Source: a virus
Lineage: Duplodnaviria; Caudoviricetes
Reading direction: 5' to 3' (one strand)
IMG/VR virus record: IMGVR_UViG_3300044728_000033
Coordinates: 1 to 28,487 of that record
DNA length: 28,487 bases
The notes under the pieces were generated by a model. That model made no database searches and was not told the origin of the DNA. It saw nothing but the letters and a program-made list of their open reading frames with translations. Below are positions 9,802 to 28,487 of this stretch, in pieces (positions within the stretch are counted from its first letter, which is position 1; each line of letters begins with the position of its first letter). The position numbers and the translations under genes are program-made.

Positions 9802-10563
9802 ATGGAGCAGCACGATGTAGCGGCGCTGAAGGGCTGGCGCACGGTCCTGCACCCCAACGGCAAGGACGTCGAGCGTTCCCATTCCGTCACTGGTAATTGG
9901 CCGCCCGACGGTCACCCGCTCTACGCTGACGAGTCGCTGGTCGCCAGGGTGACCGACTGGCTGATCGAGCACGGCCAGACGGTGTTCCAGATGTTCCTGC
10001 TCGACCGCGACGAGCGCACGCACAGCCTGATGGTGCTGCAGCGTGTAAATGTCCCGCACGCTGGTCGCGTGCTGTCCCTGGGCTCCGGCATCGCAGGCAT
10101 GGAGGCGTACTGGAAGACGGCACGACCCGACGTCCAGTTCACCCTGGTCAACGCATCCAGGGCGCAGCTAGTGCGCTCTCGCTGCCCTGGCGAGCGAGTG
10201 CAGTGCGACATGCGCTCGCCTCTCGCTGCGCTGCCTGGGCGGCTGGGCTGGTACGACCTCGTGGTGATGGGCTACTCGCTGCACCACGTCGACGACGTGC
10301 CTGCGATGCTGCGCATGGCTCGCTCGATGCTGCGGCCTGGGGGCACGCTGCTCGTGCTCGACGTGGTCGACGGCACGCACCGCTTCCACGAGGTGGTGAA
10401 CTACTGCAGCCTGCGCAGCTTCGAGCTACAGCATGCAGGGCTCGTGCGCCTCGATGGCGACTGCGACTGGCACAGGCTGCCGACCGAGGTGATCGGCGAG
10501 CGTGCGGCCGAGGTGCTCGACGCTGGCGAGGTCGAGCCCTCGATGTGGATCGGCGCGGCCTGA
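9802..10563 (+). CDS. Class I SAM-dependent methyltransferase
   Basis: Motif I RVLSLGSGIAG, then QCDM, YDLVVMGYSLHHVDD and LRPGGTLLVLD. Confidence 0.85.
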   Translation: MEQHDVAALKGWRTVLHPNGKDVERSHSVTGNWPPDGHPLYADESLVARVTDWLIEHGQTVFQMFLLDRDERTHSLMVLQRVNVPHAGRVLSLGSGIAGMEAYWKTARPDVQFTLVNASRAQLVRSRCPGERVQCDMRSPLAALPGRLGWYDLVVMGYSLHHVDDVPAMLRMARSMLRPGGTLLVLDVVDGTHRFHEVVNYCSLRSFELQHAGLVRLDGDCDWHRLPTEVIGERAAEVLDAGEVEPSMWIGAA

Positions 10564-10631
10564 TGCTGCGGCTGCTGGCGTTCGTCATCGTGGCCGTGCT
10601 GCTCTCCCTCATCGCGTGGTGCGCAGCATGA
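10563..10631 (+). CDS. Tiny membrane peptide (22 aa)
   Basis: MLRLLAFVIVAVLLSLIAWCAA, with a TGATG overlap with the MTase stop. Confidence 0.45.
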   Translation: MLRLLAFVIVAVLLSLIAWCAA

Positions 10632-10759
10632 TCACGCTCGTGGTCAACGATCCCTGGTGGACCTACGGGCTCGACTTCCTCATCGGCGTGCTCTCAGGCG
10701 CTGCAGGCATGTATGTCTTCGACCGGTGGGCAACGTGGAAGGGCAAGCGCGGTGGATGA
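10628..10759 (+). CDS. Small membrane protein (43 aa)
   Basis: MITLVVNDPWWTYGLDFLIGVLSGAAGMYVFDRWATWKGKRGG, with an ATGA overlap. Confidence 0.55.
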   Translation: MITLVVNDPWWTYGLDFLIGVLSGAAGMYVFDRWATWKGKRGG

Positions 10760-10871
10760 CATCTTCTTCATCGGCACCATCGTGCTGCTCTCGGGCATCG
10801 TCGGCTTCATCGGCGGGGTGACCTGGGTCTGGTGGCTGGCGGGCACGCCTAGCGATCCCGACTATGGCTGA
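10752..10871 (+). CDS. Small membrane protein (39 aa)
   Basis: GTG start. MDDIFFIGTIVLLSGIVGFIGGVTWVWWLAGTPSDPDYG overlaps the TerL start. Confidence 0.55.
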   Translation: MDDIFFIGTIVLLSGIVGFIGGVTWVWWLAGTPSDPDYG

Positions 10872-12225
10872 GATCACGCTGCCCAACGGCTTCACCGCAC
10901 GGCCCCTGCAGAAGGCGCTGATGCGGTACTACGACCACGGCGGGCTGCGTGCGGCCTGCTGCTGGCCTCGTCGGTTCGGCAAGGACCTCACCATGCTGCA
11001 CCAGACAGCGAAGATGAGCTTCGAGCGCCCTGGCATGTACTTCCACATGCTGCCGACGCACAAGCACGCCAGGAAGGTCGTCTGGGATGGCTTCGACAAC
11101 CAGGGCAGGAAGACCCTGGACGTGGTGTTCCCCAAGCAGTTGCGTGAGGACACCAACAAGACCGAGATGAAGATCACCCTGCGCTCTGGGGCGATCTGGC
11201 AGCTTGTAGGCTCGGACTACTACGACAGCTTGGTGGGCTCCAACCCCTTCGGCATCGTGATGAGCGAGGCGGCCCTGAGCGATCCCAGGGCGTGGTCGAT
11301 GTTCCGGCCGATGCTCGCGGGCAACGGCGGCTGGGCAGCCTTCATCAGCACACCCCGAGGCTACAACCACTTCCACGACCTGATCCAGTTGGCGAAGTCC
11401 AGCGACCACTGGTTCCACTCGCACGTCGGCGTCGGCGAGACGCAGCACATCCCGCAGGGCGTGCTCGACGACGAGCGCCGCGAGATGCCCGACGAGCTAT
11501 ACCGGCAGGAGTACGACTGCGACTTCAGCGCCGCGAACGTCGGCGCGATCTTCGGCCGCTACGTCGAGCAGATGGAGAAGCAGGGCCGCATCTGCTTCGT
11601 CGACCGGCCAGGACCCAACGACGAGGTCTGGGTGACCTCCGACATCGGCTACCGGGACAAGGCCGCGTTCATCTGGTGGAAGCGCATGCGCGGCGGCTTC
11701 GAGATATTCCACTACGACGACGGCAGCGGCATGGACGCCGAGGAGTGGATACCCAGGCTTAACAAGCAGCCCCGTGCCGATGTGCTGATCCTGCCGCACG
11801 ACGCCAGGGCGAAGACCTTCGCCTCGAAGCGCAGCGTGGTCGAGACGTTCCTGGCCGACCGGCCCTGGGGCGGCTGCGACGTGCGTGTAAATGAGCAGAG
11901 GAAGAAGCAGGACAGCATCAACGCCGGTCGGCTGATGCTGCGCCGGGTCAGGATCAGCAACAACGAGCCCTGCGCTCCGCTCCTCCAGGCTCTGAGGGCG
12001 TACCACTTCAAGTACGACGAAGAGACGAAGACCTTCCGCGCCGAGCCCGAGCATGACTGGTCGAGCCACCCGGCCGATGCGTTCATGGAAGGCGCTGCCA
12101 AGCTCGTCGAGATCGAGCCCCCGCCGCCCGAGAAGACCATAATCGTGCCGCCGCTCAGTCACACGTTCACCCTGGATCAACTCCACGAGACTGTCGGCAC
12201 GCACTCGACCCAAGGACGACTCTGA
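10864..12225 (+). CDS. terL: Terminase large subunit
   Basis: Walker A-like WPRRFGKD, Walker B GIVMSEAA, coupling motif FISTPRG, and nuclease motifs SDIG and HDWSSHPADAF. Confidence 0.95.
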   Translation: MAEITLPNGFTARPLQKALMRYYDHGGLRAACCWPRRFGKDLTMLHQTAKMSFERPGMYFHMLPTHKHARKVVWDGFDNQGRKTLDVVFPKQLREDTNKTEMKITLRSGAIWQLVGSDYYDSLVGSNPFGIVMSEAALSDPRAWSMFRPMLAGNGGWAAFISTPRGYNHFHDLIQLAKSSDHWFHSHVGVGETQHIPQGVLDDERREMPDELYRQEYDCDFSAANVGAIFGRYVEQMEKQGRICFVDRPGPNDEVWVTSDIGYRDKAAFIWWKRMRGGFEIFHYDDGSGMDAEEWIPRLNKQPRADVLILPHDARAKTFASKRSVVETFLADRPWGGCDVRVNEQRKKQDSINAGRLMLRRVRISNNEPCAPLLQALRAYHFKYDEETKTFRAEPEHDWSSHPADAFMEGAAKLVEIEPPPPEKTIIVPPLSHTFTLDQLHETVGTHSTQGRL

Positions 12226-14297
12226 TGGCAACTTACGGTGAAGCCGCAACTACCAGTGACGAAAAGTCCGGGGACGGCAGGGAATACAAGGACATCCACG
12301 ACGGCAAAAAGCCCGGCGATCAGTCCCTGGTGCCCGAGCGCGACAAGGGCAAGAGCCCCACCGAGCTAGCTGTCCGCTGGGAGCGGGAGCTTCAGGCTTC
12401 CAAGAAGGAGCTTTCCAAGTTCCACATCACCGCCAAGAAGCTGGTGCAGAAGTACCTCGACGAGCGCGACGGTGCCGCGTTCAACGAGGCGGACTCGAAG
12501 TTCAACCTGTTCTGGTCCAACATCGAGGTGCTGAAGTCCTCCTTGTATGCCAAGCCACCCAACGTCGACGTCAGCAACACGCACAAGGACTCCGAGGACG
12601 ACGTCAGCCGCGTGGCAGCCAACATCCTGCAGCGGATGCTCAACAACGACTGCGAGGACGACGACGAGAGCACCTACCCGGAGATCACGAGGCAGGCGGT
12701 CGGCGACTACCTGATCGTCGGCCTGGGTCAGGTCTGGTACAGGTACGAGGTCGAGACTGAGCAGGCCAAGACCGAGGCTGTGACCGACCCGACGACCGGC
12801 GATGTCCTGGCCGAGCCGGTCGAGTACGAGGCGATCACCTCCGAGGACGCCCCGGCCGACTACGTCTACTGGGAGGACTTCTGGTGGAGCCCTGCCAGGG
12901 TCTGGCAGGACGTTCGCTGGGTCGCCCGCCGCGTGTACATGAACCGCGAGGAGCTTATCGCCCGGTTCGGCGAGAAGATCGGCAAGGTGATCCCGGTCAG
13001 CAAGCAGAAGTCCAAGGCTGATGCCCTGGGGCACATCAACGACCCGTGGGAGAAGGCTGGCGTCTTCGAGATATGGGACAAGACCACGAAGTGCGCCTAC
13101 TGGCACGTCATGGGCTTCAACCTGATCTGCGACTACAAGAAGGACCCGCTGAAGCTCAAGGGTTTCTTCCCGTGCCCGCAGCCGCTGATGGCGAACCTGA
13201 CCACCAGCAAGTTCATCCCCCGCGCCGACTACCTGCTGGCGCAGGACCAGTACGCCCAGATCGACGAGCTTTCGACCCGGATCAAGTACCTGACGAAGGC
13301 TTGCAAGGTGGTCGGGGTCTACGACAAGAACAGCACCCCTATCGGCCGTGTCTTCCAAGAGGGCATGGAGAACCAGATGATCCCGGTCGACAACTGGGCC
13401 GCGTTCGCCGAGAAGGGCGGGCTCAAGGGGCAGATGGACTTCGTCCCCATCGAGATCATCGCTGCGGTCATCGAGAAGCTCACCCAGCAGCGCGACATCA
13501 TCAAGGGTGCGCTCTACGAGGTGCTGGGCATCGGCGACATCATGCGCGGCATGACCAACCCCGACGAGACGCTGGGCGCGCAGCAACTCAAGGCGCAGTT
13601 CGGCGGCAACCGGCTGCAGTTCAAGCAGCAGCACATTGGAGCCTGGGTCGCTGGCGGCCAGCGCATCAGGGCGCAGATCATCTGCGACCGGTTCCAGCCG
13701 CAGACGATCATGCAGCGGTCGAACATCGAGCACAGCCCCGACAAGGACATGGCTCCCCAGGCCATCGAATTCCTGAAGCAGTCCGGCGACGACAAGTTTT
13801 ACCGGATCAGCGTCGAGAGCGAGACGATGGCGATGGTCGACTGGGCGCAGGAGCGCGACAGCCGCAGCCAGTTCATGGAGGCGGTCGGCTCGTTCGTCAT
13901 GGCGGTCACTCCCCTCATCCAGGCCAAGCCCCAGGCTGGCCCTGTCGTCCTGCAGATGATGAAGTGGGGCTTGGGCGGCTTCCGCGTCTCGAAGGAGATC
14001 GAGACGGTGCTGGATCAGGCCATCGCCGCCGCGCAGCAGCCGGACCCGGAGAAGGAGCGCCCCGACCCCATCGAGGAGTCGACGGTGAAGAAGAACATGG
14101 CGACGGCCGTCAAGGACAAGACTCAGGCAGTGCTGAACCTGACCAAGGCAGGCCAGCAGCAACTGGAACGCGCCATGATCGGCGTCGACGCCAAGCCCGA
14201 CCAGGGCGCGCTGCCGCCCCCCGGCGCGCAGCCCCCTGGCCCCCAAGGTCCCCCGCAACCCGGCCCGCAAGGACCGCCACCCAACCTGATGCAGTAG
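12225..14297 (+). CDS. Portal protein
   Basis: 690 aa directly after TerL. FNLFWSNIEVLKSSLY, FFPCPQP and ETLGAQQLK are typical of P22-like podovirus portals. Pro/Gln-rich tail. Confidence 0.88.
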   Translation: MATYGEAATTSDEKSGDGREYKDIHDGKKPGDQSLVPERDKGKSPTELAVRWERELQASKKELSKFHITAKKLVQKYLDERDGAAFNEADSKFNLFWSNIEVLKSSLYAKPPNVDVSNTHKDSEDDVSRVAANILQRMLNNDCEDDDESTYPEITRQAVGDYLIVGLGQVWYRYEVETEQAKTEAVTDPTTGDVLAEPVEYEAITSEDAPADYVYWEDFWWSPARVWQDVRWVARRVYMNREELIARFGEKIGKVIPVSKQKSKADALGHINDPWEKAGVFEIWDKTTKCAYWHVMGFNLICDYKKDPLKLKGFFPCPQPLMANLTTSKFIPRADYLLAQDQYAQIDELSTRIKYLTKACKVVGVYDKNSTPIGRVFQEGMENQMIPVDNWAAFAEKGGLKGQMDFVPIEIIAAVIEKLTQQRDIIKGALYEVLGIGDIMRGMTNPDETLGAQQLKAQFGGNRLQFKQQHIGAWVAGGQRIRAQIICDRFQPQTIMQRSNIEHSPDKDMAPQAIEFLKQSGDDKFYRISVESETMAMVDWAQERDSRSQFMEAVGSFVMAVTPLIQAKPQAGPVVLQMMKWGLGGFRVSKEIETVLDQAIAAAQQPDPEKERPDPIEESTVKKNMATAVKDKTQAVLNLTKAGQQQLERAMIGVDAKPDQGALPPPGAQPPGPQGPPQPGPQGPPPNLMQ

Positions 14298-14306
14298 GAG
14301 CGCACC

Positions 14307-14588
14307 ATGACCAAGAAGGAAGAGAAGCTCGTCGAGCAGGAAACCGATCCGATCCAGCAGAAGTACGAGCGCGAGGCGCTCGAAGAGCAGGCCAAGCTGG
14401 AGAAGAAGGCCGAGAAGGGTGCCTATCTGGAGCCCCAGGCTGCCGAGGCGATGCCGCAGCGATTCTCGACCGGCGGCGCGACCTACGACGACAAGGTCGC
14501 CTGGGAAGCGGCGCACGGTGGCGCAGCGCCCGCTGGCGCGGCCATCGAGCCCGGCTACGCCGAGGCGAAAGATGTCGCGCCTCAGTGA
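14307..14588 (+). CDS. Hypothetical protein
   Basis: 93 aa with a strong AGGAG RBS. Confidence 0.7.
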   Translation: MTKKEEKLVEQETDPIQQKYEREALEEQAKLEKKAEKGAYLEPQAAEAMPQRFSTGGATYDDKVAWEAAHGGAAPAGAAIEPGYAEAKDVAPQ

Positions 14589-16287
14589 CCTCCTGCGCGA
14601 GGCAGGGACCGAGGTCGCCGGTCAGGCCGACGCGACCGGCCAGTTGCTCTGGGGGCTCGCCAAGCAGCCCGTGGCAGGGCTGACCGGTGCCAGCACCGGC
14701 ATCGCGTCCCTGCTGCGCGGCAAGGGCAAGGACCAGTCGCTGGCCGACGCCACCGAGCAGATCGAGCGTGTAAATGCCTGGGGCGGCGCCCCGGTCACCG
14801 AGCGCGGCGGGCAGCGGCTGCAGGAGCTTGGCAGCACCATCAAGGGTGCTGGAGACTGGGCGACCAAGAACGTCCCCGGCGCGAAGGCCGCAGGCGAGGG
14901 CTGGGACCAGTACGCCATGCAGAACCCTGCGATGGCGGCGGGCATGGTCGGGCTGGTGGAAGCCGCGCCAGGGCCGGGCAAGGCCAAGGGCGCCATGCGC
15001 GCCGCCGAGCAGGCGACGACGCTGGCGTCGGGCCGTGCGCGGCTGCTGCGCGAGGGGCTCGACCCCGAGAACGCGAGCAAGGCCGCCGTCGAGTCTGCCG
15101 GGCGGCCGCGCAGCATCGCCACGGTGCAGGACCCGCAGCGTGTGTCCTACCCTGGCGTGTACGACAACCCGAAGGAGCTTGTGGCTCGCGCCAAGGTCGC
15201 CCCCGAGGACCCGGCGATGAAGCAGTTGTTCGGGGTCAACCGTGGCGACCTGCTGGCGATCTCCGAAGGCGGCAGCCGCAGGGGCAACACCCCCGAGTAC
15301 CCGTACCCTTCCAGCGACAAAGGCAAGCCCAACGAGGCAGCCCTGGCCGTCTCCAACCCGCGCAACATCCAGAGGCTTCAGGACATCACCCACGAGGCGC
15401 TGAACCGCTCCGATCTGGCCGAGGGGATGGTGCCCTGGTACGTCATGGACCCGATGTTCCAGCAGTACGTCAAGCTCTGGGGGCCGGAGAAGGCGGTCGA
15501 GGAGTACAACCGGTTCAACAACTTCACCGGGATGTCGAGCCCGAGCAGCGAGGTGCTGACCGAGCTTCGCCGTGGCACTGCCGCCAACCGGCTGCACGGC
15601 GAAGGCCGGTGGGACGACTTCGTCAAGTACGGAGGGATGCCGTACCCGACCCGCAAGGGGCTGCTGGAGCAGGGGGCTTATCCCCAGGACATGATGCACA
15701 TCCCTGGGCACATGAACCACAAGACGGCGCACGTAAAGCCGATGCAGACGATGATCGAGAACGACATGACGCCGGACATGGGCAGCGCCAAGGTGCCCAG
15801 CTACATTGAAGCCTCAGGTGTCCCCGAGACGGGCTTCCAGACCGAGCACCCCATCGGTGACGCCCACTTCTCCCGCATCGTCGGCCTGCCCGATACCCGC
15901 AACTGGACGAAGACCAAGGGGATGCTCGACGTCCCCCGCGCCAGCGCCACCATCCCCGAGATGAAGATCGTCGGCGATATGTTCCGCGAGAAGGTGGCCG
16001 AGCCCGCCGGTCTGAGCGGTGTCGGCGGCCAGGGGCTGGTCTGGGGTGCCGGGTCGCACGCGACCGGCGTCACCTCGCCCATCGGAGCACCCAAGCTGGA
16101 ACTGATCTCGCAACTGATCATGCGGACGGCGAAGCGCCTGGGCGTCAGCCCCGAGAAGGCACGCGATCTGGTGATAATGCGGCAGGCCGACCTGGGACGT
16201 GCCACGCCTGGGGCTATGGGAGCCGCAGGCGCTGCAGCCGCAGGCGGTTCAGCCCTGGTGAACGCTCTCCGCGACGAGGAACCGTAG
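14572..16287 (+). CDS. Large protein with HhH-GPD glycosylase-like motifs, possibly virion-associated
   Basis: Probable start MSRLSDLL. Gly/Ala-rich N-terminus, then PWY...SSP...GSAKVPSY...PIGDAHFSR...GQGLVW. Confidence 0.55.
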   Translation: MSRLSDLLREAGTEVAGQADATGQLLWGLAKQPVAGLTGASTGIASLLRGKGKDQSLADATEQIERVNAWGGAPVTERGGQRLQELGSTIKGAGDWATKNVPGAKAAGEGWDQYAMQNPAMAAGMVGLVEAAPGPGKAKGAMRAAEQATTLASGRARLLREGLDPENASKAAVESAGRPRSIATVQDPQRVSYPGVYDNPKELVARAKVAPEDPAMKQLFGVNRGDLLAISEGGSRRGNTPEYPYPSSDKGKPNEAALAVSNPRNIQRLQDITHEALNRSDLAEGMVPWYVMDPMFQQYVKLWGPEKAVEEYNRFNNFTGMSSPSSEVLTELRRGTAANRLHGEGRWDDFVKYGGMPYPTRKGLLEQGAYPQDMMHIPGHMNHKTAHVKPMQTMIENDMTPDMGSAKVPSYIEASGVPETGFQTEHPIGDAHFSRIVGLPDTRNWTKTKGMLDVPRASATIPEMKIVGDMFREKVAEPAGLSGVGGQGLVWGAGSHATGVTSPIGAPKLELISQLIMRTAKRLGVSPEKARDLVIMRQADLGRATPGAMGAAGAAAAGGSALVNALRDEEP

Positions 16288-16686
16288 ATGCCGACCTATT
16301 CCTTCCGCTGCGCCAAGTGCGAGAAGACCCTGGATGTCGTCCGCTCGATCTCGGACCACCTCAGGAGCCCCAGGCCGCTGATCTGCTGCGGCGAGGTGGC
16401 CGACCGCTACTTCCCGCCGGGTCCGCGTGTAAATGCTCTGGACAACGCCCTGGCAGGCGACCGGCACTACATCGGGGTGTGTGCCCAGGACGGCACCGAC
16501 ATCTCATCGAGATCGAAGCACCGGGAGTACATGCACAGGCATGGTCTGACGACCGCCGACGACTACACCGAAACCTGGGCGAAGGCGCAGAAGGCTCGTG
16601 AAGCCTACCGGCGCGGCGAACGGGGGACCGGTGCAATTACCCGTAACGATATTGAGCGGGCGTTCGCCCGAGCCAAGGGAGCCTGA
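16288..16686 (+). CDS. FmdB-family zinc-ribbon protein
   Basis: N-terminal MPTYSFRCAKC...ICCG. Confidence 0.75.
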   Translation: MPTYSFRCAKCEKTLDVVRSISDHLRSPRPLICCGEVADRYFPPGPRVNALDNALAGDRHYIGVCAQDGTDISSRSKHREYMHRHGLTTADDYTETWAKAQKAREAYRRGERGTGAITRNDIERAFARAKGA

Positions 16687-16687
16687 G

Positions 16688-16870
16688 ATGACTATTACCT
16701 CGTTGCTGACCGTTCTGCTGGTTCTGGCCGTCTTCGGCCTGATCGTCTGGCTGATCGTCACCTACATCCCGATGCCGCCCCCCTTCAAGACGGTGATCAT
16801 CGCCGTGGCAGCCATCGTCCTGATCATCTGGCTGGTCCAGTGGTCCGGCCTGCTGCGCCTGCACGCCTAG
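16688..16870 (+). CDS. Small two-TM membrane protein (Thivi_2564-like, possible holin)
   Basis: MTITSLLTVLLVLAVFGLIVWLIVTYIPMPPPFKTVIIAVAAIVLIIWL has two TM helices separated by IPMPPPFK. Confidence 0.65.
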   Translation: MTITSLLTVLLVLAVFGLIVWLIVTYIPMPPPFKTVIIAVAAIVLIIWLVQWSGLLRLHA

Positions 16871-16915
16871 CTAGCGTAGCCCCTATTTCGCGCTCGTAAA
16901 CCACAAGGAGAACCT

Positions 16916-18067: not shown

Positions 18068-18198
18068 AGCTCGTAGAACCGAGCCGGGGGAAGTAGAACC
18101 GCAACGCGGCCATCGACACCCCCAGGCAACGGCCATCGAAAGGCGGATGAGAACGGTCTGCATGTAAATGCAGGGTACAACTTCATTCGGAGATTTCA

Positions 18199-19170: not shown

Positions 19171-19180
19171 TCTCCTTGAC

Positions 19181-19207: not shown

Positions 19208-19225
19208 CAGCTTCAGGAGAACACG

Positions 19226-19834: not shown

Positions 19835-19843
19835 GGGTCCGCC

Positions 19844-20563
19844 ATGTCGACGGACACCGTAGCGGACATCTACCAGAAGCCTGGGGCTCCGTACAGCACG
19901 TCTACCGACGCCTACAGCAGCACCACCATCGGTGCTGCTGCGGCGACTGTCGAGGCTGCGTCGGTGGTCTGCCCGACCATCGCCAACGCCCTGCCCCCGG
20001 TGCTGCTGCCCGGCGTCAACATCCTGACGAAGACGCAGTTGTTCGAGAACGCCGTCTGGACGAAGACTCGTGCGTCCGTCACCGCCAACGCGATTGCAGC
20101 GCCGGACCTCACGCTGACGGCGGACAAGCTCGTCGAGGATGCGACCGCCAACAACACCCACACCCTGAACGGCACGGCCGCCACGACGGTGGCCGAGGCG
20201 AACTACATCTGGTCGATCTACGCCAAGGCCGGGGAGCGGACGCGGATCAGGCTGCGTGCCGCGACCAACATCACCTTCCTGGGCGACATGATCGTCGACC
20301 TGTTGACCGGGACCGTCGTCTGGGCTGGCAGGGCGAACCTCGTACCGGCTGTAGCCGGGATCATCGACGCGGGCAACGGTTGGTATCGGCTCTGGATGCG
20401 TATCCCCACGCAGCCGCTGTCGGTGTCGTCCTCTCTCAACGTGTGGCTGGTCGACACCGGGCTCAACACCACCTACGACGGAAACGGCACCAGCGGCGTG
20501 TACCTCTGGGGTGCCCAGCTTGAGCAGTCGGACACCCTCCACGCCTACACCGCTGTAGCCTGA
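19844..20563 (+). CDS. Head spike/fiber-like protein with CBM-like beta-sandwich
   Basis: NILTKTQLFENAVWTKT...TADKLVED...SIYAKAGER...GNGWYRL...GVYLWGAQLEQ is a recurrent phage fiber module. Confidence 0.65.
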   Translation: MSTDTVADIYQKPGAPYSTSTDAYSSTTIGAAAATVEAASVVCPTIANALPPVLLPGVNILTKTQLFENAVWTKTRASVTANAIAAPDLTLTADKLVEDATANNTHTLNGTAATTVAEANYIWSIYAKAGERTRIRLRAATNITFLGDMIVDLLTGTVVWAGRANLVPAVAGIIDAGNGWYRLWMRIPTQPLSVSSSLNVWLVDTGLNTTYDGNGTSGVYLWGAQLEQSDTLHAYTAVA

Positions 20564-20564
20564 C

Positions 20565-20963
20565 ATGCTGGTATCCGGCGTCCTCAAGTTCGACGACCTT
20601 GGCAGGATCATCCTGTCGGGCGGGCCGCCGCTCGACTTCAACGGGGGCACCCCCATCGGGGCTGACGGTGGCCTTGTTGCAGCCGCAGGCGCTGACCCCG
20701 ATCTCTACTTCGCGGCCATCGGCTACCTCGACGACGGCAGCCTCACTGACAGCAGCAACCCGCTGGTGCCCCAGAGCGGCCCGCTGACCAACGACAAGGG
20801 TCAGGTCCGCATCAGCTTCGACGTGCCGGTCTACTGGTACGCAGGGCTGCCGCTGACCGCCGATGGCTTCCTCTCGATCAGCGACGGCGTCGTCCCGCCA
20901 GTGATCGGCCCTGGAGCCTTCGACCAGGGCTTCGACAACGCCTTCGACAACGGGAGCCCGTGA
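20565..20963 (+). CDS. Hypothetical virion protein
   Basis: 132 aa with internal G-x-P-x-x-x-D-G repeats and a C-terminal AFDQGFDNAFD motif. Confidence 0.65.
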   Translation: MLVSGVLKFDDLGRIILSGGPPLDFNGGTPIGADGGLVAAAGADPDLYFAAIGYLDDGSLTDSSNPLVPQSGPLTNDKGQVRISFDVPVYWYAGLPLTADGFLSISDGVVPPVIGPGAFDQGFDNAFDNGSP

Positions 20964-21535
20964 TGGCACGCAAGACAATGTTCGCGTTGAAGGCTCAGGC
21001 TGACGCTACGCTGCCCGACAACGCCTCGCACCAGATCACCGCCGCCGCAGTGCGGACGATGATCAAGGACTTCATCGACACGATGACGCCAGGGTTCGGC
21101 GCGCTCGGTGCCGACATCGCCACCCTTGTAGCCCTGGGCACCACGCCTGTGATGGTTGTGCTGCCCAACCTGATGGCGATCACCGCCGACTTCACGTCGT
21201 TCGGCCCGACCAGCGGACAGCTTCGGCGCAACGCCCTGGGGCTGCCTTCGACGAACACCCGCGTCACCTTCTACGCAGGCATCTCCTGCGACGTGGGCAA
21301 CGAGATCGTCTTCAGCTTGTTCCGCGACGGGGTCAACGTGCCTGGGGGCTGCACGATCAGCGGCCAGGGCAACACCAACGTCACCGAGGGCTCCTTCGAG
21401 GTCATCAACGCCGTGCCCGTGGCAGGCGACCCGGTGTACGAGGTCAGGGCGAGCAAGATCAGCGGCGGCATCGACGATGTCGAATTGACCGACGTGCGCC
21501 TGATCCTTGAGGTGGTCCCGACCATCGGCATCTGA
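20963..21535 (+). CDS. Hypothetical virion protein
   Basis: ~190 aa with a TGATG overlap. N-terminal LPDN...ITAAAVR, beta-rich C-terminus. Confidence 0.65.
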   Translation: MARKTMFALKAQADATLPDNASHQITAAAVRTMIKDFIDTMTPGFGALGADIATLVALGTTPVMVVLPNLMAITADFTSFGPTSGQLRRNALGLPSTNTRVTFYAGISCDVGNEIVFSLFRDGVNVPGGCTISGQGNTNVTEGSFEVINAVPVAGDPVYEVRASKISGGIDDVELTDVRLILEVVPTIGI

Positions 21536-21607
21536 TTTAAATCTGCAGGCTTCAGTGGGATGGGCCAGCCGAGATTTCCCAACATCCCACGCACAAGGAG
21601 AACCCAG

Positions 21608-22279
21608 ATGGCACTCGACGCACAGCAGGTTGAAGCCCTGCAGAACAGCCAGCCCCCCACCGATTGGTCCAAGTTCGATCAGACCGTCAGTGTGGATGCC
21701 CGTACCTTCGGCGGTGCGCCGGGTGGCCTGCCGCCGGGCATGGGGCCGGGGCACGACGACAAGCTGCACGTCCACTTCTACATGAAGCCGCGCATCGACA
21801 TCGAGGAGTCGAACAAGGCCAACCGGCCGATCTACAAGGACGTCCCGTTCATCACCGTGATGATCCCCGGCGACAAGAACAACATCGTCACCGCAGAGGT
21901 CTGGGACCTCCACCGCAGGCGCTTCCCGCAGCACTGGGCGCAGTTCATCGCTGGGGTCAAGGATCAGGTCGTCGGCACGCCGCTCAAGGTCGCGCCGTTC
22001 CTGACCGAGGCGCACATCGAGGAGCTTGCGTACTTCAAGATTCGCACCATCGAGCAGTTGGCGAACCTGTCGGACACCAACATGACCTTCATGGGTGCCC
22101 GCGAGATGTCCGACGCGGCGAAGAAGTACCTGCTGACCGTCAACGGCAACGAGGCGCTGCTGGAGCGCATCAGGGCACTCGAAGCCCAGATCGGCAGCCA
22201 GAGGGCCGAGATGGACGCCAGCAGCAAGCAGGACAAGCCGGACAAGCCCAGCCAGGGCGTGAAAAACTTCGGCCGTTAA
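21608..22279 (+). CDS. Conserved-type phage hypothetical protein
   Basis: Start MALDAQ after AAGGAG. Contains RPIYKDVPFI..IPGDK, RFPQHWAQF, GTPL and KIRTIEQLANLSD, with a C-terminal coiled coil. Confidence 0.7.
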   Translation: MALDAQQVEALQNSQPPTDWSKFDQTVSVDARTFGGAPGGLPPGMGPGHDDKLHVHFYMKPRIDIEESNKANRPIYKDVPFITVMIPGDKNNIVTAEVWDLHRRRFPQHWAQFIAGVKDQVVGTPLKVAPFLTEAHIEELAYFKIRTIEQLANLSDTNMTFMGAREMSDAAKKYLLTVNGNEALLERIRALEAQIGSQRAEMDASSKQDKPDKPSQGVKNFGR

Positions 22280-22294
22280 GCCTGGGGAAACAGC

Positions 22295-23077
22295 ATGGCT
22301 ACCACCTACTCGATCACCAACTTCTCGACGTTCCAGACGTTGATGCAGCAGGTGTGCGCCATGCTCAACCTGCCGGTCCCGACCGACCCGGTCGGGTCGG
22401 CGGACCCCAACATGGTCCTGATGCGGACGGCGGCGAACCTCGCCAGCCTGGAGATGCTCAACGCCTACGAGTGGAGCCAGTTGACCAAGGACGGCACGAT
22501 CACCGTCCAGACGCTGGTGCCGCCGCTCCCTGGCGAGTCGAGCGAATTGGCCTTCCCTCTCCCGGCCGACTTCTACCGGTTCATCGACCAGACCCAGTGG
22601 AACGGCTCGATGCGCTTCCCGGCGGTCGGCCCGGTCGCGCCCCAGGGCTGGATGACCTACCGGGTCTTCCCGATCAGCGCCAACTTCACGCTGACGTGGC
22701 AGATGCGGCAGCGCCAGCTTTGGTTCCTGAACCCGCCCCCGCCGCCAGGGCAGACGTTCAGGTTCATGTACCTGTCCCAGGCGCTGGTGCAGGACGCGGA
22801 CAACCCCGACCTGTACAAGAACGTCGCAACGAAGGCTGGCGACATCTTCCAGCTTGACGGCATCCTGATGACGCTCTGCACCCGGATGAAGTGGCTTGAA
22901 GCCCGTGGCTTCGACTCGTCCGCTGCGGTGCGCGACTTCCTGCTGGCCTTCGACTCCCGCATCGGCGCAGAGAAGGGCGCGAACATCCTGAACATGGCAG
23001 GCGGCCGCCACGACTACCCGTACATCGGCGTCGGCAACCTGCCTGAGGCGAGCCTCTACGGCATGCGCCAAAACTGA
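22295..23077 (+). CDS. Head-tail adaptor / tail tubular protein A-like
   Basis: Helical N-terminus, YEWSQL and FPLPADFYRFIDQTQW, located before the nozzle gene. Confidence 0.65.
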   Translation: MATTYSITNFSTFQTLMQQVCAMLNLPVPTDPVGSADPNMVLMRTAANLASLEMLNAYEWSQLTKDGTITVQTLVPPLPGESSELAFPLPADFYRFIDQTQWNGSMRFPAVGPVAPQGWMTYRVFPISANFTLTWQMRQRQLWFLNPPPPPGQTFRFMYLSQALVQDADNPDLYKNVATKAGDIFQLDGILMTLCTRMKWLEARGFDSSAAVRDFLLAFDSRIGAEKGANILNMAGGRHDYPYIGVGNLPEASLYGMRQN

Positions 23078-23094
23078 TAGTTACTGGTGACGAA

Positions 23095-23319
23095 ATGGCA
23101 ACTCTTCCTCCAGGCTGGGTGATCACTCCGACCGACGAAATCGTCCCCAATCCCAACGTAGGGACTCCGGCCGAAGGGTCGTTCTTTGCCCGCCGGACCT
23201 ACATCTGCCGCAACGCTGCCGGTGCCTACGTCTGCTCGTCCGGTGCCCTGGAGGACTGCGAGGCGCAAGCCCAGGGGCTGGCCCAGCAGCGCACGCAGAA
23301 GCAGCCCTACTACAACTGA
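23095..23319 (+). CDS. Hypothetical protein
   Basis: 74 aa that exactly fills the gap between adaptor and nozzle. Confidence 0.6.
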   Translation: MATLPPGWVITPTDEIVPNPNVGTPAEGSFFARRTYICRNAAGAYVCSSGALEDCEAQAQGLAQQRTQKQPYYN

Positions 23320-23320
23320 C

Positions 23321-24955
23321 ATGGCTCTCGTTCCCTACCAAGGACCCCGTCGCACGACGCCCAGGCGGTCGAGCGCCACGCAGAACCATCAGGCGTTCCC
23401 GTTCGGTGCGCCGCTGCGCGGCCTGGACGTGACCCAGCCCCTGCCGGGTGGCGACCCGCAGACGGCTATCCGGCTGGAGAACCTCATCCCCCGCGTGCTG
23501 GGCTGCCAGATGCGCCGGGGCTTCCTGCGCCACAAGAGCCACCTCACGGGCGAGGTGCGGTCGTTCATGAAGTACCTGTCGCCGCTGGGGGTCAACAAGC
23601 TCCTGGCTGCATCGGCCGCAGGCGATGTCTTCGACGTGACCACGGCATCGGCCTCTGGCGTTGTCCCGGCCCCCGTGCTGGCCGTGCCGACCGGCACGCC
23701 CGTCGGCGAGTGGACCTCGCTCAACTTCGTGACATCGGCAGGCGTCCACGTCATGCTGATGGTGAACCCTGGGTCTGGCTACTGGATTTACAACGGCGCA
23801 GCGTTCACCCAGATCACGCTCGGTGCCGGACCCAACCAGATCGCTGGCATCAATCCCAACCTCTTCAGCTTCGTCACCGTCTACAAGAACCGGGTCTGGT
23901 TCATCGAGAAGGACACGACCCGTGGCTGGTACTTGCCCTTCGGCCAGTACGCTGGGACGGCGACCGCCTTCGACTTCGGCTCGATGCTGCCCAACGGTGG
24001 CAACCTCCAGGCGTTGATCAACTGGACCTATGACGGCAGCAGCGGCGTCGGGGTCCAGAACCAGTTCGTCATCGTCGCCAGCCAGGGCGACGTGCTGGTC
24101 TATGGTGGCGACGATCCTGCTGTAGCCGCGAGCTTCCAAGTGGTCGGCCGCTGGTACATCGGCCGCGTGCCGGTGGGCAACCGGTTCTTCACCAACTACC
24201 AGCAGGACGTCGCACTGCTCTCCGAGCGCGGCATGTGCTTCATGTCGGAGCTTATGCGCGGCCAGGGCTTCTTCCAGAACCCGCAGATCGCCAGTGCCAT
24301 CAACTCTGCCCTGGCGGTCGAGATCGCGGGCTCGCTCGACGTGCGCTACTGGGAGATCAAGTTCCTGCCGCACGAGCAGTTGCTGCTGATCAACCGGGCC
24401 GAGATCAACCTTGAGAACCTGCAGTGGGCATACGAGGTGAACAACAAGGCGTTCGCCATGCTGCGCGGCTACCCGATGCTGACGGTCGAGGCGTTCAACG
24501 GCAAGGTGTTCTCGGGCGATCTCGTCGGCAACGTCTGGCAATGCTTCGTAGGCGGCACCGATGGACAGGTCGACGCCGTCCCCGGCAGCGACCTCCAGGG
24601 GCTCGTGGTGACCGCCTTCCAGCCGCTGGGCGAGGGCATCCGGGTCAAGCGGTTCCACATGGTCCGCCCGAGCTTCATCAGCGACTCGGCTCCTGGCGTG
24701 CAGGCCGGGTTGAACAGCGAGTGGAACCTTGAGATCAGCGGCTCGATCCCGGCGTACCTGGGCGCGGGCTCGGGAGCCTGGGACGTCGGCCTGTGGGACG
24801 TGGCCGTCTGGTCCGGCCAGGGGCAGAGCTACGAGGCATGGACCGGCGCTGCTGGCAGCGGCCGCTACGGTGCCCTGGCGATGAAGGTCCGCGCATCGGC
24901 CGACACGATCTTCGTCGGCTGGCAGGCGCTGGTGGAGCCTGGGGGTGTGCTGTGA
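23321..24955 (+). CDS. Tail nozzle / packaged-DNA stabilization protein (P22 gp10-like)
   Basis: Start MALVPY. Beta-propeller-like content (YKNRVWFIEK, GDVLVYGGDDP) and a C-terminal WDVGLWDVAVW. Confidence 0.75.
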   Translation: MALVPYQGPRRTTPRRSSATQNHQAFPFGAPLRGLDVTQPLPGGDPQTAIRLENLIPRVLGCQMRRGFLRHKSHLTGEVRSFMKYLSPLGVNKLLAASAAGDVFDVTTASASGVVPAPVLAVPTGTPVGEWTSLNFVTSAGVHVMLMVNPGSGYWIYNGAAFTQITLGAGPNQIAGINPNLFSFVTVYKNRVWFIEKDTTRGWYLPFGQYAGTATAFDFGSMLPNGGNLQALINWTYDGSSGVGVQNQFVIVASQGDVLVYGGDDPAVAASFQVVGRWYIGRVPVGNRFFTNYQQDVALLSERGMCFMSELMRGQGFFQNPQIASAINSALAVEIAGSLDVRYWEIKFLPHEQLLLINRAEINLENLQWAYEVNNKAFAMLRGYPMLTVEAFNGKVFSGDLVGNVWQCFVGGTDGQVDAVPGSDLQGLVVTAFQPLGEGIRVKRFHMVRPSFISDSAPGVQAGLNSEWNLEISGSIPAYLGAGSGAWDVGLWDVAVWSGQGQSYEAWTGAAGSGRYGALAMKVRASADTIFVGWQALVEPGGVL

Positions 24956-25374
24956 TAGCGACCCAGCCGCAGGACGCCCTCGCCTACTGGCTGTGCAGCC
25001 GGATCGGCCTCGTGCCTTCGCCCAACATCCAGTGCATCGGCTCGATCTCCGACCGCGAGCCCCATGTCCTGCGCGGCGTCGTCGGCTTCGACAGCTTCAA
25101 CGAAGCCTCGTGCGTGATGCACATGGCAGGCGAGCCCGGCTGGATCGACAAGAAGATGCTGCACGTCTGCTTCGACTATCCGTTCAACGTCATGGGCTGC
25201 AATCAGGTCCTGGCCTTCGTCCCGAGTGACAATATCGTCGCGCTCGACATCAACCGCCGCCTGGGGTTCTCGCTCGTTGTCGAGCTTGACGGCGCTCACC
25301 CCGACGGCTCGCTCTTCCTCATGCGGATGCGCCGCGACGAATGCAAGTGGCTCGCGCCACGGAGGACCCACTGA
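24952..25374 (+). CDS. GNAT-fold protein (acetyltransferase-like)
   Basis: GTG start overlaps the upstream stop. FDYPFNVMGC...VPSDNIVALDINRRLGFSLV is a GNAT C-terminal motif, in the usual position before ejection genes. Confidence 0.7.
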   Translation: MIATQPQDALAYWLCSRIGLVPSPNIQCIGSISDREPHVLRGVVGFDSFNEASCVMHMAGEPGWIDKKMLHVCFDYPFNVMGCNQVLAFVPSDNIVALDINRRLGFSLVVELDGAHPDGSLFLMRMRRDECKWLAPRRTH

Positions 25375-26504
25375 TGGGCAAGAAGTCAGGACCGCCGCCC
25401 CCGCCCGACTACTCGGCGATGGCCGAGAAGACGGCCGCGTCGAGCCAGGAAGCGCAGACCCGTGCCGACTGGGCGAACCGGCCCGATCAGGTAACACCCT
25501 GGGGCTCCCAGAAGTGGGAGTCGCAGGCGATGGTCGACCCGGCCACGGGCAAGACCGTCACCAAGTGGGTCCAGAACACCACCGTCGACCCGAAGATGCA
25601 GGAGGCGCTCGACGCCCAGCAGAACGTCGACAACGCCAAGAGCCAGCTTGCCCAGGCGCAGATCGGCCGCGCTGGCGAGGCGATGGCGAACGAATTCGAC
25701 TGGAACAACCTCGCCAAGGGTGGGCAGGCGGTCGCGGCACGCGAGACGGACCCCAACGCCTTCATGTCGAGCGGTGCAGGCCAGGGCATCATGGGCAACC
25801 TGGGCAAGACCAACGTCACCCAGGCCGGTGGCGATCTCGGGCGGCAGCGCACCGAGCAGGCGCTGATGGCGCGCATGCAGCCGCAGAACGACCGGGCCAT
25901 GTCCCAGCTTGAGGGCAAGCTGCAGAACATGGGGCTCACCCGTGGCAGCGAAGCCTGGAAGCAGGAGATGCAGAACCTGCAGGACAACCAGTCGCGGCAG
26001 GCGTTCGACGCCATGCAGACGGCCGGTGGCGAGCAGCAGCGCAACTACCAGATGGAATTGCAGGGCCAGGGCCAGCAGTTCCAGCAGGACCTCGCCGGGG
26101 CGCAGTTCCAGAATCAGGCACAAGCCCAGGGCTTCGGCCAGGGCATGGCGCAGAACCAGCAAAACTTCGGGATGATGTCTGGTGCGAACCAGCAGAATTT
26201 CCAGCAGGACCTGTCGGCCTCGCAGTACGCCAACACCCTGCGGCAGCAGCAGATCGCCGAGCAGATGCAGAAGCGGGCGATGCCGCTCAACGAGATGAAC
26301 GCGCTGCTGACCGGTGCCCAGGTGGCGATGCCGACGATGCCGAGCTTCAACGCCTCGCAGTCGGCTGGCGGCGTCAACTACTCGGGCGCGGCCAAGGACC
26401 AGTACAGCGCAGGCATGGACGCCTACAACGCGAAGCAGCAGCAGAGCCAGAGCTTGATGTCCGGCATCGGGTCGGTCGCAGGCATCGCGGCGATGGCAAT
26501 GTAA
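25374..26504 (+). CDS. DNA ejection/pilot (internal virion) protein
   Basis: MGKKSGPPPPPDY...NRPDQVTPWGS N-terminus, Gln/Ala-rich helical body and a hydrophobic Gly/Ala C-terminus. Confidence 0.7.
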   Translation: MGKKSGPPPPPDYSAMAEKTAASSQEAQTRADWANRPDQVTPWGSQKWESQAMVDPATGKTVTKWVQNTTVDPKMQEALDAQQNVDNAKSQLAQAQIGRAGEAMANEFDWNNLAKGGQAVAARETDPNAFMSSGAGQGIMGNLGKTNVTQAGGDLGRQRTEQALMARMQPQNDRAMSQLEGKLQNMGLTRGSEAWKQEMQNLQDNQSRQAFDAMQTAGGEQQRNYQMELQGQGQQFQQDLAGAQFQNQAQAQGFGQGMAQNQQNFGMMSGANQQNFQQDLSASQYANTLRQQQIAEQMQKRAMPLNEMNALLTGAQVAMPTMPSFNASQSAGGVNYSGAAKDQYSAGMDAYNAKQQQSQSLMSGIGSVAGIAAMAM

Positions 26505-26519
26505 CCCCAGGAGATAGAG

Positions 26520-26999
26520 ATGGCTGACGACATCACGATGGCAGCGCCTGCGAACATGCAGCCCCAGAACGAGGAGATGCTCCTCAAGCACCTGATGGGC
26601 CAGGGCGTGCATAACGCGGCCGACAAGAGCATCGCCAAGAAGCAGGCGATGCTGAACCAGTTGCGCCAGACGACTGAGCTTCCCGGCATGATCCAGGGCG
26701 GCGGCGCTCGCACGGTCCAGGCAGCGCACCCCCTGTCGGCCATCGCCAACGTCGCCGGTCAGGTGATGGGGGCGCAGCAGCAGCGGGGGCTGAACGACGA
26801 GTCGGCCAACGTGATGGGCAACCGGCGCTCCGACCTCGCCAACCTCCAGTGGCAGCAGCAGCAGGCCAAGGATTACGCCGCCATCGGCAAGAATCCCGAC
26901 GGCAGCCCGATGCAGCCCCGGCCCGGTGCCGTGCCCCCGGTGATGCCCCAGGCTGCGCCGCCGATGATGGACCCGACGCAGACCTTCGGTGGCCCCTGA
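26520..26999 (+). CDS. Putative ejection/internal virion protein
   Basis: 159 aa, Gln/Met/Pro-rich, with AGGAG RBS, within the ejection cluster. Confidence 0.55.
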   Translation: MADDITMAAPANMQPQNEEMLLKHLMGQGVHNAADKSIAKKQAMLNQLRQTTELPGMIQGGGARTVQAAHPLSAIANVAGQVMGAQQQRGLNDESANVMGNRRSDLANLQWQQQQAKDYAAIGKNPDGSPMQPRPGAVPPVMPQAAPPMMDPTQTFGGP

Positions 27000-27008
27000 G
27001 GAGTCGAG

Positions 27009-28487
27009 ATGTACGAGGACGTAATCAGCACGATCCTCGGGGACCTTCAGCAAGCCCCGAGCCCTGGCGCAGCGCGTGTAAATGCGCTGCGTGGTCAGCC
27101 GGGCTCGTTCGCCGACATGAGTCAGCCCGGCCCGCCCGAGATGCCGCCGCCCGGCATGCCCCCGCCGCCGCGCCAGCCCGGCCCGCCGTCGTTCGTCGCC
27201 AACGGTCCTGGCGGCGGCGTGCTGCCGCCTGGGCAGGCCGCTGGTGCGCCCCAGGGCGGCCCGTCGCCGCAGGGTGGTGCCACGGGGTCCTGGGGCGATC
27301 CCGAGCCCAACACGGGCGGCCAGACCGGCTCCTGGGGGCCGCCGCCTGGACCGGTCCCGCCCGCTGGACCGGTCCCGCCCGCTGGACCGCCGACCGGCGG
27401 CCTGGACATGGCGACCGGTCGGAGCCCTCAGAACGGCCCAGGAGGCGCTGGAAGCTCCTCAGGCGGGGTTGGTATCACCGTGGGCGCTGGAGCGCCAGGG
27501 CGGCCCGCTCCGGCCGGTCCTGACCCCCTCGCGGCCGAGTACGCCGACATCGTCCGCCGCCAGAAGGAAGCCGAGCAGCAGGAGCAGGACCTCCTCAAGC
27601 CGGTCGACCGGCGCGAGATGGAGCGGATGTACGGTCGCCGGGCCGAGTCGGGGAACACCAAGATGCTGCTCGCCCTGGCGGCGCAGCAGGCCGGGGACGA
27701 GTACGCCCCGTTCCAGGCTCAGTTCCTGAAGCAGGCCGCCGAAGCCGAAGCACCGATGAAGGTGACGGGCGGGACGATGACAGCCCAGGGCTTCATCCCC
27801 GACGCCGACTTCGAGCGCGAGAAGGCCATCGTCCGCGTCCAGGCGCGGCTGCAGTCCCTCGCCAACGCCAGGGCGCACGTCCTCACCAAGCAGTCGGACA
27901 ACGAGCTTCGCCGCCAGCAGATGGAGTCGCAGGAGGAGATGAAGCGGCTGATGCTGGGGCAGACGGCCGCCATCGCCAACATGCAGAGCGCCGACCGCCG
28001 GTACGGTATCGACATGGCGCACGCGGATCGCCAGGACCGTGCCGCTGGAGCCAAGGGTGCAGGCAGCGGCAAGGGCACGGCCGACCCGCAGACGATCCTG
28101 AACCTGCTCGACCGCGCAGAGGCGCACCTGGGCAACGCCACCGGGTCCGGCGCTGGAGCCCTGGTCGACAAGGGTGTCGGCTTCTTCGGCGGCTCGACGA
28201 AGGGCATGGTGGCCGCCGGGCCGCTGAAGGTGATCGCAGGCAACCTGACGATGGCCCAGCCCCGGATGGAAGGGCCGCAGTCGGACAAGGACACCGCCCT
28301 CTACAAGGAGATGGCGGGCAACCTCGCCGACGACACGCTGCCCGTCAACGTGCGGATGAGCGCCCTCAAGGAGATGCGCCTGATCGCCAACCGGTACAAG
28401 TCCGGCTACTGGGCACCTCCGGGTTACAAGCCCCCGCCTGGATTCAAGGTCGACAGCGGCACGGGCGGCCAGACCGGCGGCGGCGGC
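27009..28487 (+). CDS. Putative large ejection/internal virion protein (runs off the right edge)
   Basis: Open from ATG 27009 (MYEDVISTILGDLQQ...) to the window end. Pro/Gly-rich N-terminus, helical middle, and PRMEGPQSDKD motif. Confidence 0.7.
   Translation, partial: MYEDVISTILGDLQQAPSPGAARVNALRGQPGSFADMSQPGPPEMPPPGMPPPPRQPGPPSFVANGPGGGVLPPGQAAGAPQGGPSPQGGATGSWGDPEPNTGGQTGSWGPPPGPVPPAGPVPPAGPPTGGLDMATGRSPQNGPGGAGSSSGGVGITVGAGAPGRPAPAGPDPLAAEYADIVRRQKEAEQQEQDLLKPVDRREMERMYGRRAESGNTKMLLALAAQQAGDEYAPFQAQFLKQAAEAEAPMKVTGGTMTAQGFIPDADFEREKAIVRVQARLQSLANARAHVLTKQSDNELRRQQMESQEEMKRLMLGQTAAIANMQSADRRYGIDMAHADRQDRAAGAKGAGSGKGTADPQTILNLLDRAEAHLGNATGSGAGALVDKGVGFFGGSTKGMVAAGPLKVIAGNLTMAQPRMEGPQSDKDTALYKEMAGNLADDTLPVNVRMSALKEMRLIANRYKSGYWAPPGYKPPPGFKVDSGTGGQTGGGG
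27347..27387 (+). repeat. 18-bp in-frame tandem repeat (GPVPPA units)
   Basis: TGGACCGGTCCCGCCCGC occurs twice, followed by a partial third copy. Confidence 0.8.

Follow-up and report, generated by a model that had tools for sequence, protein, structure and literature searches.

A SprT-like zinc protease as the probable reader of an 8-bp word dispersed along phage genomes

The 28,487-nucleotide stretch analysed here over its full length (the window; IMG/VR record IMGVR_UViG_3300044728_000033) is a 28.5-kb, 66% GC fragment of a podovirus-like phage that contains 11 copies of an 8-bp near-palindrome (GTGTAAAT, ATGTAAAT, ATTTAAAT or CTTTAAAT; hereafter, the word). Sequence comparisons indicate that the reader of this word is very probably a SprT-like zinc metalloprotease encoded by the phage itself (Table 1). 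The observations behind this assignment are the array of sites and its spacing, the co-occurrence of the gene and the word, a match between a loop of the protein and the spelling of the word, a site within the promoter-like sequence of the protease gene, and conserved catalytic residues. The overall picture, in which a self-regulating protease is tethered along its own genome, is given about an even chance of being correct.

The minus strand of the window carries early and replication genes and the plus strand carries late genes; among named phages, the capsid protein is closest to those of Stenotrophomonas phage BUCT555 (67%) and Myxococcus phage Mx8 (57%). An earlier note made from the sequence alone had described a strand-polarised 11-mer in late genes, read in several proteins as Arg-Val-Asn (RVN) and thought to form an RNA hairpin. 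The copies that it listed are present, all on the + strand (GCGTGTAAATG at 10041, 11883, 14766, 16425 and 27074, GCATGTAAATG at 18160, and GCGTGTAAATC at 6545), and are over-represented: eight matches with at most one mismatch are found against 0.24 expected, a number reached in none of 100 shuffles. The unusual codon choice is also confirmed, as all five RVN tripeptides in the 41 genes called in the window are written CGT GTA AAT (codon shares 0.09, 0.038 and 0.058), whereas 2000 synonymous shuffles gave no site in 1963 cases and one site in 37, against the five observed. However, the repeated unit is the 8-mer, and the C/G flanks that extended it to 11 are likely codon context. At gene borders there are four members beyond the earlier list (2876, 3979, 8724 and 21535), of which three belong to the early region. 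They are located at stop codons or between a ribosome-binding site and a start codon, and the slots that they occupy hold other spellings in other lineages. The 6545 copy lies antisense within an early gene and is read Ile-Tyr-Thr (I-Y-T), and the label 'glycosylase-like' for the gene around 14766 is without Pfam or PHROG support in scans that covered 50 open reading frames (ORFs) of the window. A one-mismatch copy at 12931 was rejected as a member; it lies in a conserved RRVYMN stretch with variable codons. The window is apparently half converted between spellings: sites whose G is fixed by an Arg codon read GTGTAAAT, and those free of this constraint read ATKTAAAT or CTTTAAAT.

A comparison of 80 viral loci related by capsid protein, and of the 28 whole or partial genomes obtained from them (numbers beginning with L or G are our labels for loci and genomes), reveals three spellings of one 8-bp near-palindrome. 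The C-type, GTKTAMAC, occurs 20 times in G001 (one copy duplicated by the terminal repeat), 21 in G003, 18 in G413, 15 in both G415 and G421, 13 in G407, and 12 in both G408 and G410. The G-type, CTTTAAAG, is found in G004 (17 copies), G005 (16) and G414 (9), and the T-type in the window (11) and G002 (12, one duplicated by overlap). Nearly all TKTAAA hexamers of the GC-rich members fall within the lineage's own 8-mer (20/20 in G001, 11/12 in the window). The terminase RVN is written CGT GTA AAT in T-type phages, CGT GTA AAC in nine C-type phages, and with ordinary codons (CGC or CGG, GTC, AAC) in the two G-type phages that keep RVN. Because these codons follow the spelling type of the phage, the nucleotide sequence rather than the protein is under selection, as the earlier note had proposed.

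The strand polarity seen in the window is not general, since the word occurs in both orientations elsewhere, for example 20 versus 19 times in Streptomyces phage Stuff and 11 versus 7 times in G003. The plus-strand bias likely follows from coding constraint, because a GC-rich gene can accommodate the word mainly as R-V-N in the sense direction or as I-Y-T on the other strand. The gaps between sites are more even than random (p<0.05) in 9 of 17 genomes of the group (window coefficient of variation 0.51, p 0.023; G413 0.37) and in 6 of 11 other records tested.

The gene content of 13 word-positive genomes was compared with that of 12 word-negative genomes, with six shorter fragments left out. 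G421, a distant, low-GC positive whose other genes resemble those of the word-negative group, served as the query; its protease ORF matches all 12 other positives and 1 of the 12 negatives, among the matches listed. The gene shared by G421 and all of the word-positive genomes is the SprT-like protease gene at 3355-3933 in the window. G428, a word-negative genome that has the protease, carries TKTAAAG at 11 of 14 hexamers, counted by eye. Among the fragments left out, the gene is present in the word-positive G412 and G420, and no match was found in the word-negative G422 and G425.

The association extends beyond the capsid-related group. The protease gene has matches in 164 named phages and 74 plasmids, of which 22 records were examined, and all 15 examined records with a K-[KP]-Q-x-T-R loop hold GTKTAAAC. 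Gene and word are carried together by unrelated Arthrobacter, Microbacterium, Streptomyces, Dinoroseobacter, Burkholderia and E. coli phages and by Sphingobium plasmids. The copy number is 28 in Reedo (0.8 expected), 39 in Stuff (in 50 of 54 kb), 22 in Zeta1847, 18 in IAmGroot, 17 in Maureen and in Emotion, 14 in phage 4A, 10 in R5C (in 50 of 78 kb), 7 in Mica and in Arya, 6 in HeidiAbel and in pUT1, 4 in Mano and in Persinger, and 3 in pSAMIE_5. In the seven examined records with other loops, the word is absent from five Microbacterium phages (loop KSRSG[KR]S) and from Psa21-HRN, and FP1 shows no excess. No comparable alternative word was found in FP1, Psa21 or four of the five KSRSG[KR]S phages; GCGATCGC is mildly enriched.

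The spelling of the word is predicted by the loop that precedes the zinc finger: Arg151 corresponds to GTKTAAAC, Pro149 together with Arg151 to the AAAT-ending form of the window, and Tyr151 to CTKTAAAG. This relation was assessed in 138 viral loci (the window counted), which reduce to 84 proteins at <90% identity and to 71 with at least 10 kb of DNA, and a spelling was called at p<0.001 under an order-3 Markov model. Loci with Arg151 and without Pro149 are C-type in 38 cases and uncalled in 16, those with Pro149 and Arg151 are T-type in seven and uncalled in one, those with Tyr151 are G-type in five of five, and those with other loops are G-type in one and uncalled in three. None of the 51 called loci gives a contrary spelling, nor does any of the 13 loci with <10 kb of DNA. 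G433, with the loop QTQKTYM, contains CTGTAAAG 46 times. In a quick tree of the protease domain, built without the loop and the finger, at least four changes to or from Tyr/Phe and at least three involving Pro fall on strongly supported branches, and L281 (Tyr, G-type) groups as sister to L244 (Arg, C-type).

Several other proteins were considered as readers and rejected. The ribbon-helix-helix-like gene 8734-9096 and the FmdB-like gene, both put forward earlier as candidates for binding experiments, do not track the word. The predicted DNA-contact strand of the former is the same across different words (VKTYRID in G001 and G005; VKTLRLD in the window and L038), and neither the FmdB-like gene nor the terminase small subunit co-varies with the spelling. 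The 8734-9096 product (-) is a small protein, conserved in the group, with an AT-hook-like KRGRP and a ribbon-helix-helix-like segment whose fold was assigned by eye. A Cro-like helix-turn-helix gene located after the helicase, outside the window, is confined to word-positive genomes (10 of 12 other positives and none of 12 negatives, among the matches listed), but no copy was found in G421, and the recognition helix, PQSLYKWER, does not vary among the five genomes read, which have three spellings. The primases of G001 and G003, which share the word, are unrelated.

The protease matches phrog_6361 (E 1e-37) and, below the cut-off of 25.6 bits, the Pfam SprT-like family (PF10263; E 4e-5, 24 bits). 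H81, E82, H85 and H94 are invariant in 111 homologues, and the metal ligands overall are invariant or nearly so. AlphaFold2 predicts two domains with confidence (predicted local distance difference test score, pLDDT, 93.8; predicted template-modelling score, pTM, 0.80). Modelling as a homodimer gives a score of 0.67 against 0.00 for the best of three controls, with contacts that agree by at least 96% between runs and a pLDDT of at least 87; 20 of the 30 solved pairs reach 0.67, as does one of the 23 single chains, and a homodimer is thus supported as a prediction. A sequence search of the PDB with the protease matched no solved structure, and a Foldseek search with the model gave no match at E<=0.001, the best being abylysin (E 0.008), followed by weak matches that include CapP, IrrE and PprI (E about 0.1-0.2). 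No match for the protease was found in PADLOC or NCBIfam. Homologues occur in 13 of 401 Burkholderiales genomes; nine of the ten cellular homologues read have neither loop nor array, and the loop is present in G165, with only two sites in 29 kb. The chromosomal Burkholderiales homologues (L343-L346, L351-L359) have proline-rich loops and no word array, and some are fused into longer proteins (frames of 438-724 aa).

A sigma-70-like sequence precedes the protease gene, and the position of the word relative to it recurs among relatives. The word lies in the spacer in the window, G002, G004, G005 and L157, and immediately downstream of the -10 box in G001, G407, G408, G410, G412, G413, G415, Reedo, HeidiAbel and Mica. 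The slot of the window site is occupied by GTTTAAAC in G001 and by CTTTAAAG in G004 and G005. No word was found within 110 bases in G414, R5C, 4A, L165-L169 or pSAMIE_5. The other early promoter-like sites of the window's group are without the word, and a genome-wide role consequently fits better than an early-gene switch.

In the mechanism that we propose, a dimer of the protease would read each 8-bp word through the basic loop KKQPTR and the zinc finger. These two elements very probably bind the word directly; residue 151 would set the outer base pair, and Pro149 would shift this pair to A-T. The protease would repress its own promoter, so that the protein level would follow the number of sites; such autorepression is probable. 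Sitting every 2-3 kb on its own genome, the protease would cut proteins that load on or travel along phage DNA, and the candidate substrates are DNA-bound host proteins, for example translocating restriction or SMC-type defence complexes, or silencers. We regard local proteolysis of DNA-bound host proteins as evenly balanced between right and wrong. The tethered protease is preferred as the purpose of the array because catalysis is conserved, the spacing is even and the early promoters of the window's group are uncovered, and also because conjugative plasmids and phages that have a CI of their own are among the carriers.

Several points weigh against this interpretation. G414 has the gene and the word with no site near the protease promoter, and the word-positive fragments G406 and G409 (61% and 75% complete) have no match to the protease gene. 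Among the Arg151 loci, 16 of 54 fall below the calling threshold; additionally, the loop code was first seen in genomes that also belong to the larger set, and sites are common to close relatives, which makes the tests partly dependent. The null of the spacing test is uniform random, and the 17 genomes of the group share sites and are hence non-independent. The repeated genome-wide respelling is explained more easily by immunity conflict than by self-protection. Finally, in the plasmid protein ArdC, a structurally related protease site is dispensable for anti-restriction (PMC7213743; this and the other publications are cited from the parts available to us).

The same protein may instead act as an immunity repressor, with operators at promoters, intragenic sites serving as stoperator-like roadblocks in the lysogen or carrier state, and the protease domain providing a self-cleavage induction switch; this we consider possible, although on the unlikely side. 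Cluster AZ phage Powerpuff forms homoimmune lysogens for which the repressor is unidentified (PMC8758107). Liebe, which has a frameshift in the protease gene, forms clear plaques in contrast to the turbid plaques of Maureen (bioRxiv 10.1101/2025.05.26.655371), but the two phages differ at three further positions. Sites do occur at early promoter-like sequences in Zeta1847, where four hold the word in the spacer, and in Maureen, where several hold it right after the -10 box (by eye), whereas in the window's group only the promoter-like site of the protease gene itself is covered and no integrase is seen among the ORFs listed for G001-G005, which come from crude gene calls. The absence of the word from the five Microbacterium phages whose loop is KSRSG[KR]S, and the repeated switches of specificity on the protease-domain tree, would also suit a repressor, as would the weak fold matches to IrrE/PprI and CapP, which cut repressors. 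However, HeidiAbel has an annotated CI-like repressor and only six sites, the gene and the word are found on conjugative plasmids, and one spelling is common to most phages across phyla. The tethered-protease and repressor interpretations could both hold, in different phages.

It is improbable that the sites are allosteric switches, through which the presence or multiplication of phage DNA would turn on the protease to cut a diffusible host target. Such a role agrees with the invariant catalytic residues, with the DNA dependence of SPRTN-type proteases and with the rarity of the word in the sampled Burkholderiales chromosomes, although these may not represent the host group. On this account the total number of sites, not their position, would matter, yet 15 of 28 records have sites spaced more evenly than random. 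Less probable still, and already largely refuted, is a host protein of the nucleoid-occlusion, partition or methylase type for which the phage accumulates sites. Within GTGTAAAC lies GTWWAC, which is methylated in Burkholderia and Ralstonia, and some relatives have parS-like palindromes, but GTWWAC is not within GTTTAAAC, ATTTAAAT or CTTTAAAG. Moreover, the same spelling is found in phages of Actinobacteria and of Alpha-, Beta- and Gammaproteobacteria, close relatives differ in spelling in step with the phage protein, and the word is not generally in excess in two samples of Burkholderiales (251 and 151 genomes), an order that may not be that of the host. The word likewise departs from host chromosome-organising sites (SlmA SBS, matS, parS, Chi/KOPS) in lacking both enrichment in the sampled chromosomes and a lineage-fixed pattern.

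The earlier reading of the word as a GUAA-tetraloop RNA hairpin acting in late transcripts retains hardly any probability. The extended stems described at 27074 and 18160 exist, with nine and five extra pairs beyond the 8-mer when G-U is allowed, but at least three extra pairs form at only 3 of 11 window sites and the other eight have at most two. Over 369 sites in 21 genomes, at least three extra pairs form at 11.7%, slightly above the 8.4 +/- 1.4% obtained with flanks swapped, a small excess that fits sites placed in existing hairpins. The stem of the capsid-leader copy changes in step among relatives (by eye), and in two relatives the word lies in a terminator-like loop; however, the leader hairpin (18157-18174) is kept whether or not its loop holds the word (read by eye), with GCAA, AUGUA or GUGUA as the loop in relatives that have lost the word. 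Relatives carry perfect palindromes with non-GNRA centres (GTTTAAAC, CTTTAAAG), so that many would have UUAA or UUAC loops, and sites are also antisense or in early genes rather than confined to late ones. The conserved stem and GNRA loop on the transcribed strand that define boxB/nut-type hairpins are not found with the window word, and no N-like antiterminator turned up in general Pfam/PHROG scans of 50 window ORFs, in which no directed search was made. As for the DNA site that had been offered as a fallback, the stoperator-like idea came close, but a polarised site is not supported.

The preferred system, a protease reading dispersed sites, resembles several known ones in part. KorB/O_B of IncP plasmids and C1 of P1 are autoregulated and have at least a dozen scattered operators, some of these at promoters and others within genes; their sites exceed the word in length, and their readers, of the helix-turn-helix or ParB type, have no protease domain. 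Cluster A stoperators are 13 bp long and polar, and their repressor has a helix-turn-helix fold. Many dispersed sites for one phage protein are a common feature (11 in the window, 3-46 elsewhere), with binding predicted in the present case. The Cluster A mycobacteriophage repressors (L5 gp71 type) have many short sites genome-wide, in promoters and genes, with specificity diverging between relatives (PMC9283540, PMC6550527), and they act as monomers on an asymmetric site (PMC9283540). In contrast, the word is an 8-bp near-palindrome in either orientation, not an asymmetric site oriented with transcription, and its candidate reader is a predicted dimer that combines a zinc protease with a zinc finger.

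As in SPRTN/Wss1, an HEXXH zinc protease whose ligands are intact precedes a small domain that binds zinc and likely DNA, in keeping with the weak Pfam match. SPRTN recognises DNA structures and cuts cross-linked proteins; no sequence-specific site array has been described for it, whereas the loop-to-word code of the window points to sequence-specific binding. IrrE/PprI, ImmA, CapP and ArdC are likewise zincin proteases of mobile elements or stress circuits that are linked to DNA binding, and we know of none with cognate double-stranded DNA sites across its own genome. ArdC, an anti-restriction protein with such a protease domain, binds single-stranded DNA non-specifically, and IrrE cuts a separate repressor (PMC7213743). 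A preprint on cluster AZ describes the protease with a predicted DNA-binding domain and predicts a SPRTN-like function; the word does not occur in the available part of its text (bioRxiv 10.1101/2025.05.26.655371), nor do 'SprT' or 'TAAAC' in the available main text of a Microbacterium phage survey (PMC7302621). Neither the word nor a connection between it and the gene was found described in the literature, within which subscription papers and bioRxiv supplements were largely beyond reach; with the same scope, the combination of a protease placed by DNA sequence was found in no paper.

Table 1. Positions in the window of the protease gene, its promoter-like sequence, the loop codons and the 11 sites
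Feature	Position	Strand	Context	Remark
SprT-like zinc metalloprotease, 192 aa	3355..3933	-		H81-E82-H85 + H94; C-terminal zinc finger (C157, C160, C180, C183)
Putative sigma-70-like promoter of protease gene	3965..3994	-	site in spacer	-35 TTGTGA 3994-3989, -10 TACAAT 3970-3965; from sequence only
Basic loop RKKQPTR codons (residues 145-151)	3481..3501	-		Pro149 = 3489-3487, Arg151 = 3483-3481; predict the window spelling
Site ATTTAAAT	2876..2883		between ribosome-binding site and start codon of early gene 2407-2874	same word at 32623 in G002
Site CTTTAAAT/ATTTAAAG	3979..3986		over stop codon of HicA-like gene, within protease promoter-like sequence	
Site GTGTAAAT	6547..6554		antisense in early gene 6453-6668	read I-Y-T
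Site CTTTAAAT	8724..8731		just past stop of gene 8734-9096, ahead of next ribosome-binding site	
Site GTGTAAAT	10043..10050		methyltransferase gene	R-V-N
Site GTGTAAAT	11885..11892		terminase large subunit	R-V-N; CTTTAAAG-type phages use ordinary codons there
Site GTGTAAAT	14768..14775		variable gene of unknown function (about 14572-16287)	
Site GTGTAAAT	16427..16434		FmdB-like gene	gain or loss among close relatives
Site ATGTAAAT	18162..18169		loop of capsid-leader hairpin (18157-18174)	
Site ATTTAAAT	21535..21542		stop codon of gene 20960-21535	GTTTAAAC in same slot in G001
Site GTGTAAAT	27076..27083		near start of last gene	inside GC-rich stem 27067-27092

Other features of the window and its relatives were recorded during the analysis. 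A HicA-like gene (3981-4193, -; PADLOC E 1e-8) lies directly upstream of the protease gene and is preceded by a small acidic ORF, a candidate antitoxin. A promoter-like TTGACA...TATCCT at about 1390-1417 (-), within the exonuclease gene, is kept in G001, G004, G005 and G408. An imperfect palindrome, AGCC-NNN-GGCT, occurs eight times in both orientations (537, 3614, 4229, 5985, 9149, 13927, 14431 and 19878); in relatives, CCCCAGGCTAC or CCCGGGCTAC runs into the -10 boxes of early promoter-like sites, and part of the palindrome may be a promoter element. The sequence TTAC[GC]CGTAACGATATTGC is conserved about 1.3-1.55 kb upstream of the capsid gene (L010:5509, L016:8448, L020:8660, L021:8663, L035:8688, L036:7516), and CGTAACGAAA words are repeated in several genomes; a late promoter or a site for another regulator is possible for these. 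Other heavily repeated words are CCTGCGGG, 38 copies in Maureen (L198-L200), a CTCCCG-type word in L040, TAGCGGG in L058:688-958, and CCGTAGCC/CCGGAGCC in G421 (L115-L116).

In L018:6509 and L024:1321, the capsid match begins at residue 2 and coding-like sequence upstream replaces the usual leader, possibly through an insertion or fusion. Two PEP-CTERM protein genes are present in the phage G001 (L090:84-1359), with similar genes in G002-G004; these point to an exosortase-bearing host and may account for the 'provirus' labels on trimmed relatives. Bacterial genomes yielded no prophage relative above 70% capsid identity. The palindromes TTCCACGTG[GA]AAC in L036:753-825, L038:2110-2275 (two in each) and L037:7114 are parS-like, hinting at episomal maintenance.

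The window contributes the rare Pro149 spelling and a codon-level control to the case for a DNA-reading protease. If the assignment is true, a widespread and unexplained gene of phages and plasmids, annotated as 'SprT-like protease', would gain a DNA target and a readable specificity code. As a tentative extension, to which we lend less than even confidence, phages and plasmids of several phyla would share a small dimeric protease, tethered to DNA in a sequence-specific manner through a code of one or two residues and stationed at intervals of a few kb on its own genome, that destroys host defence or silencing complexes in cis, and the same protein would be the missing immunity repressor of the AZ and EH phages. 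These phages are homoimmune, have no known repressor and carry 17-28 sites, some of which abut promoters, so that an open question about them would become testable. Cultured carriers exist for this purpose, namely HeidiAbel on E. coli and Maureen and Liebe on Arthrobacter.

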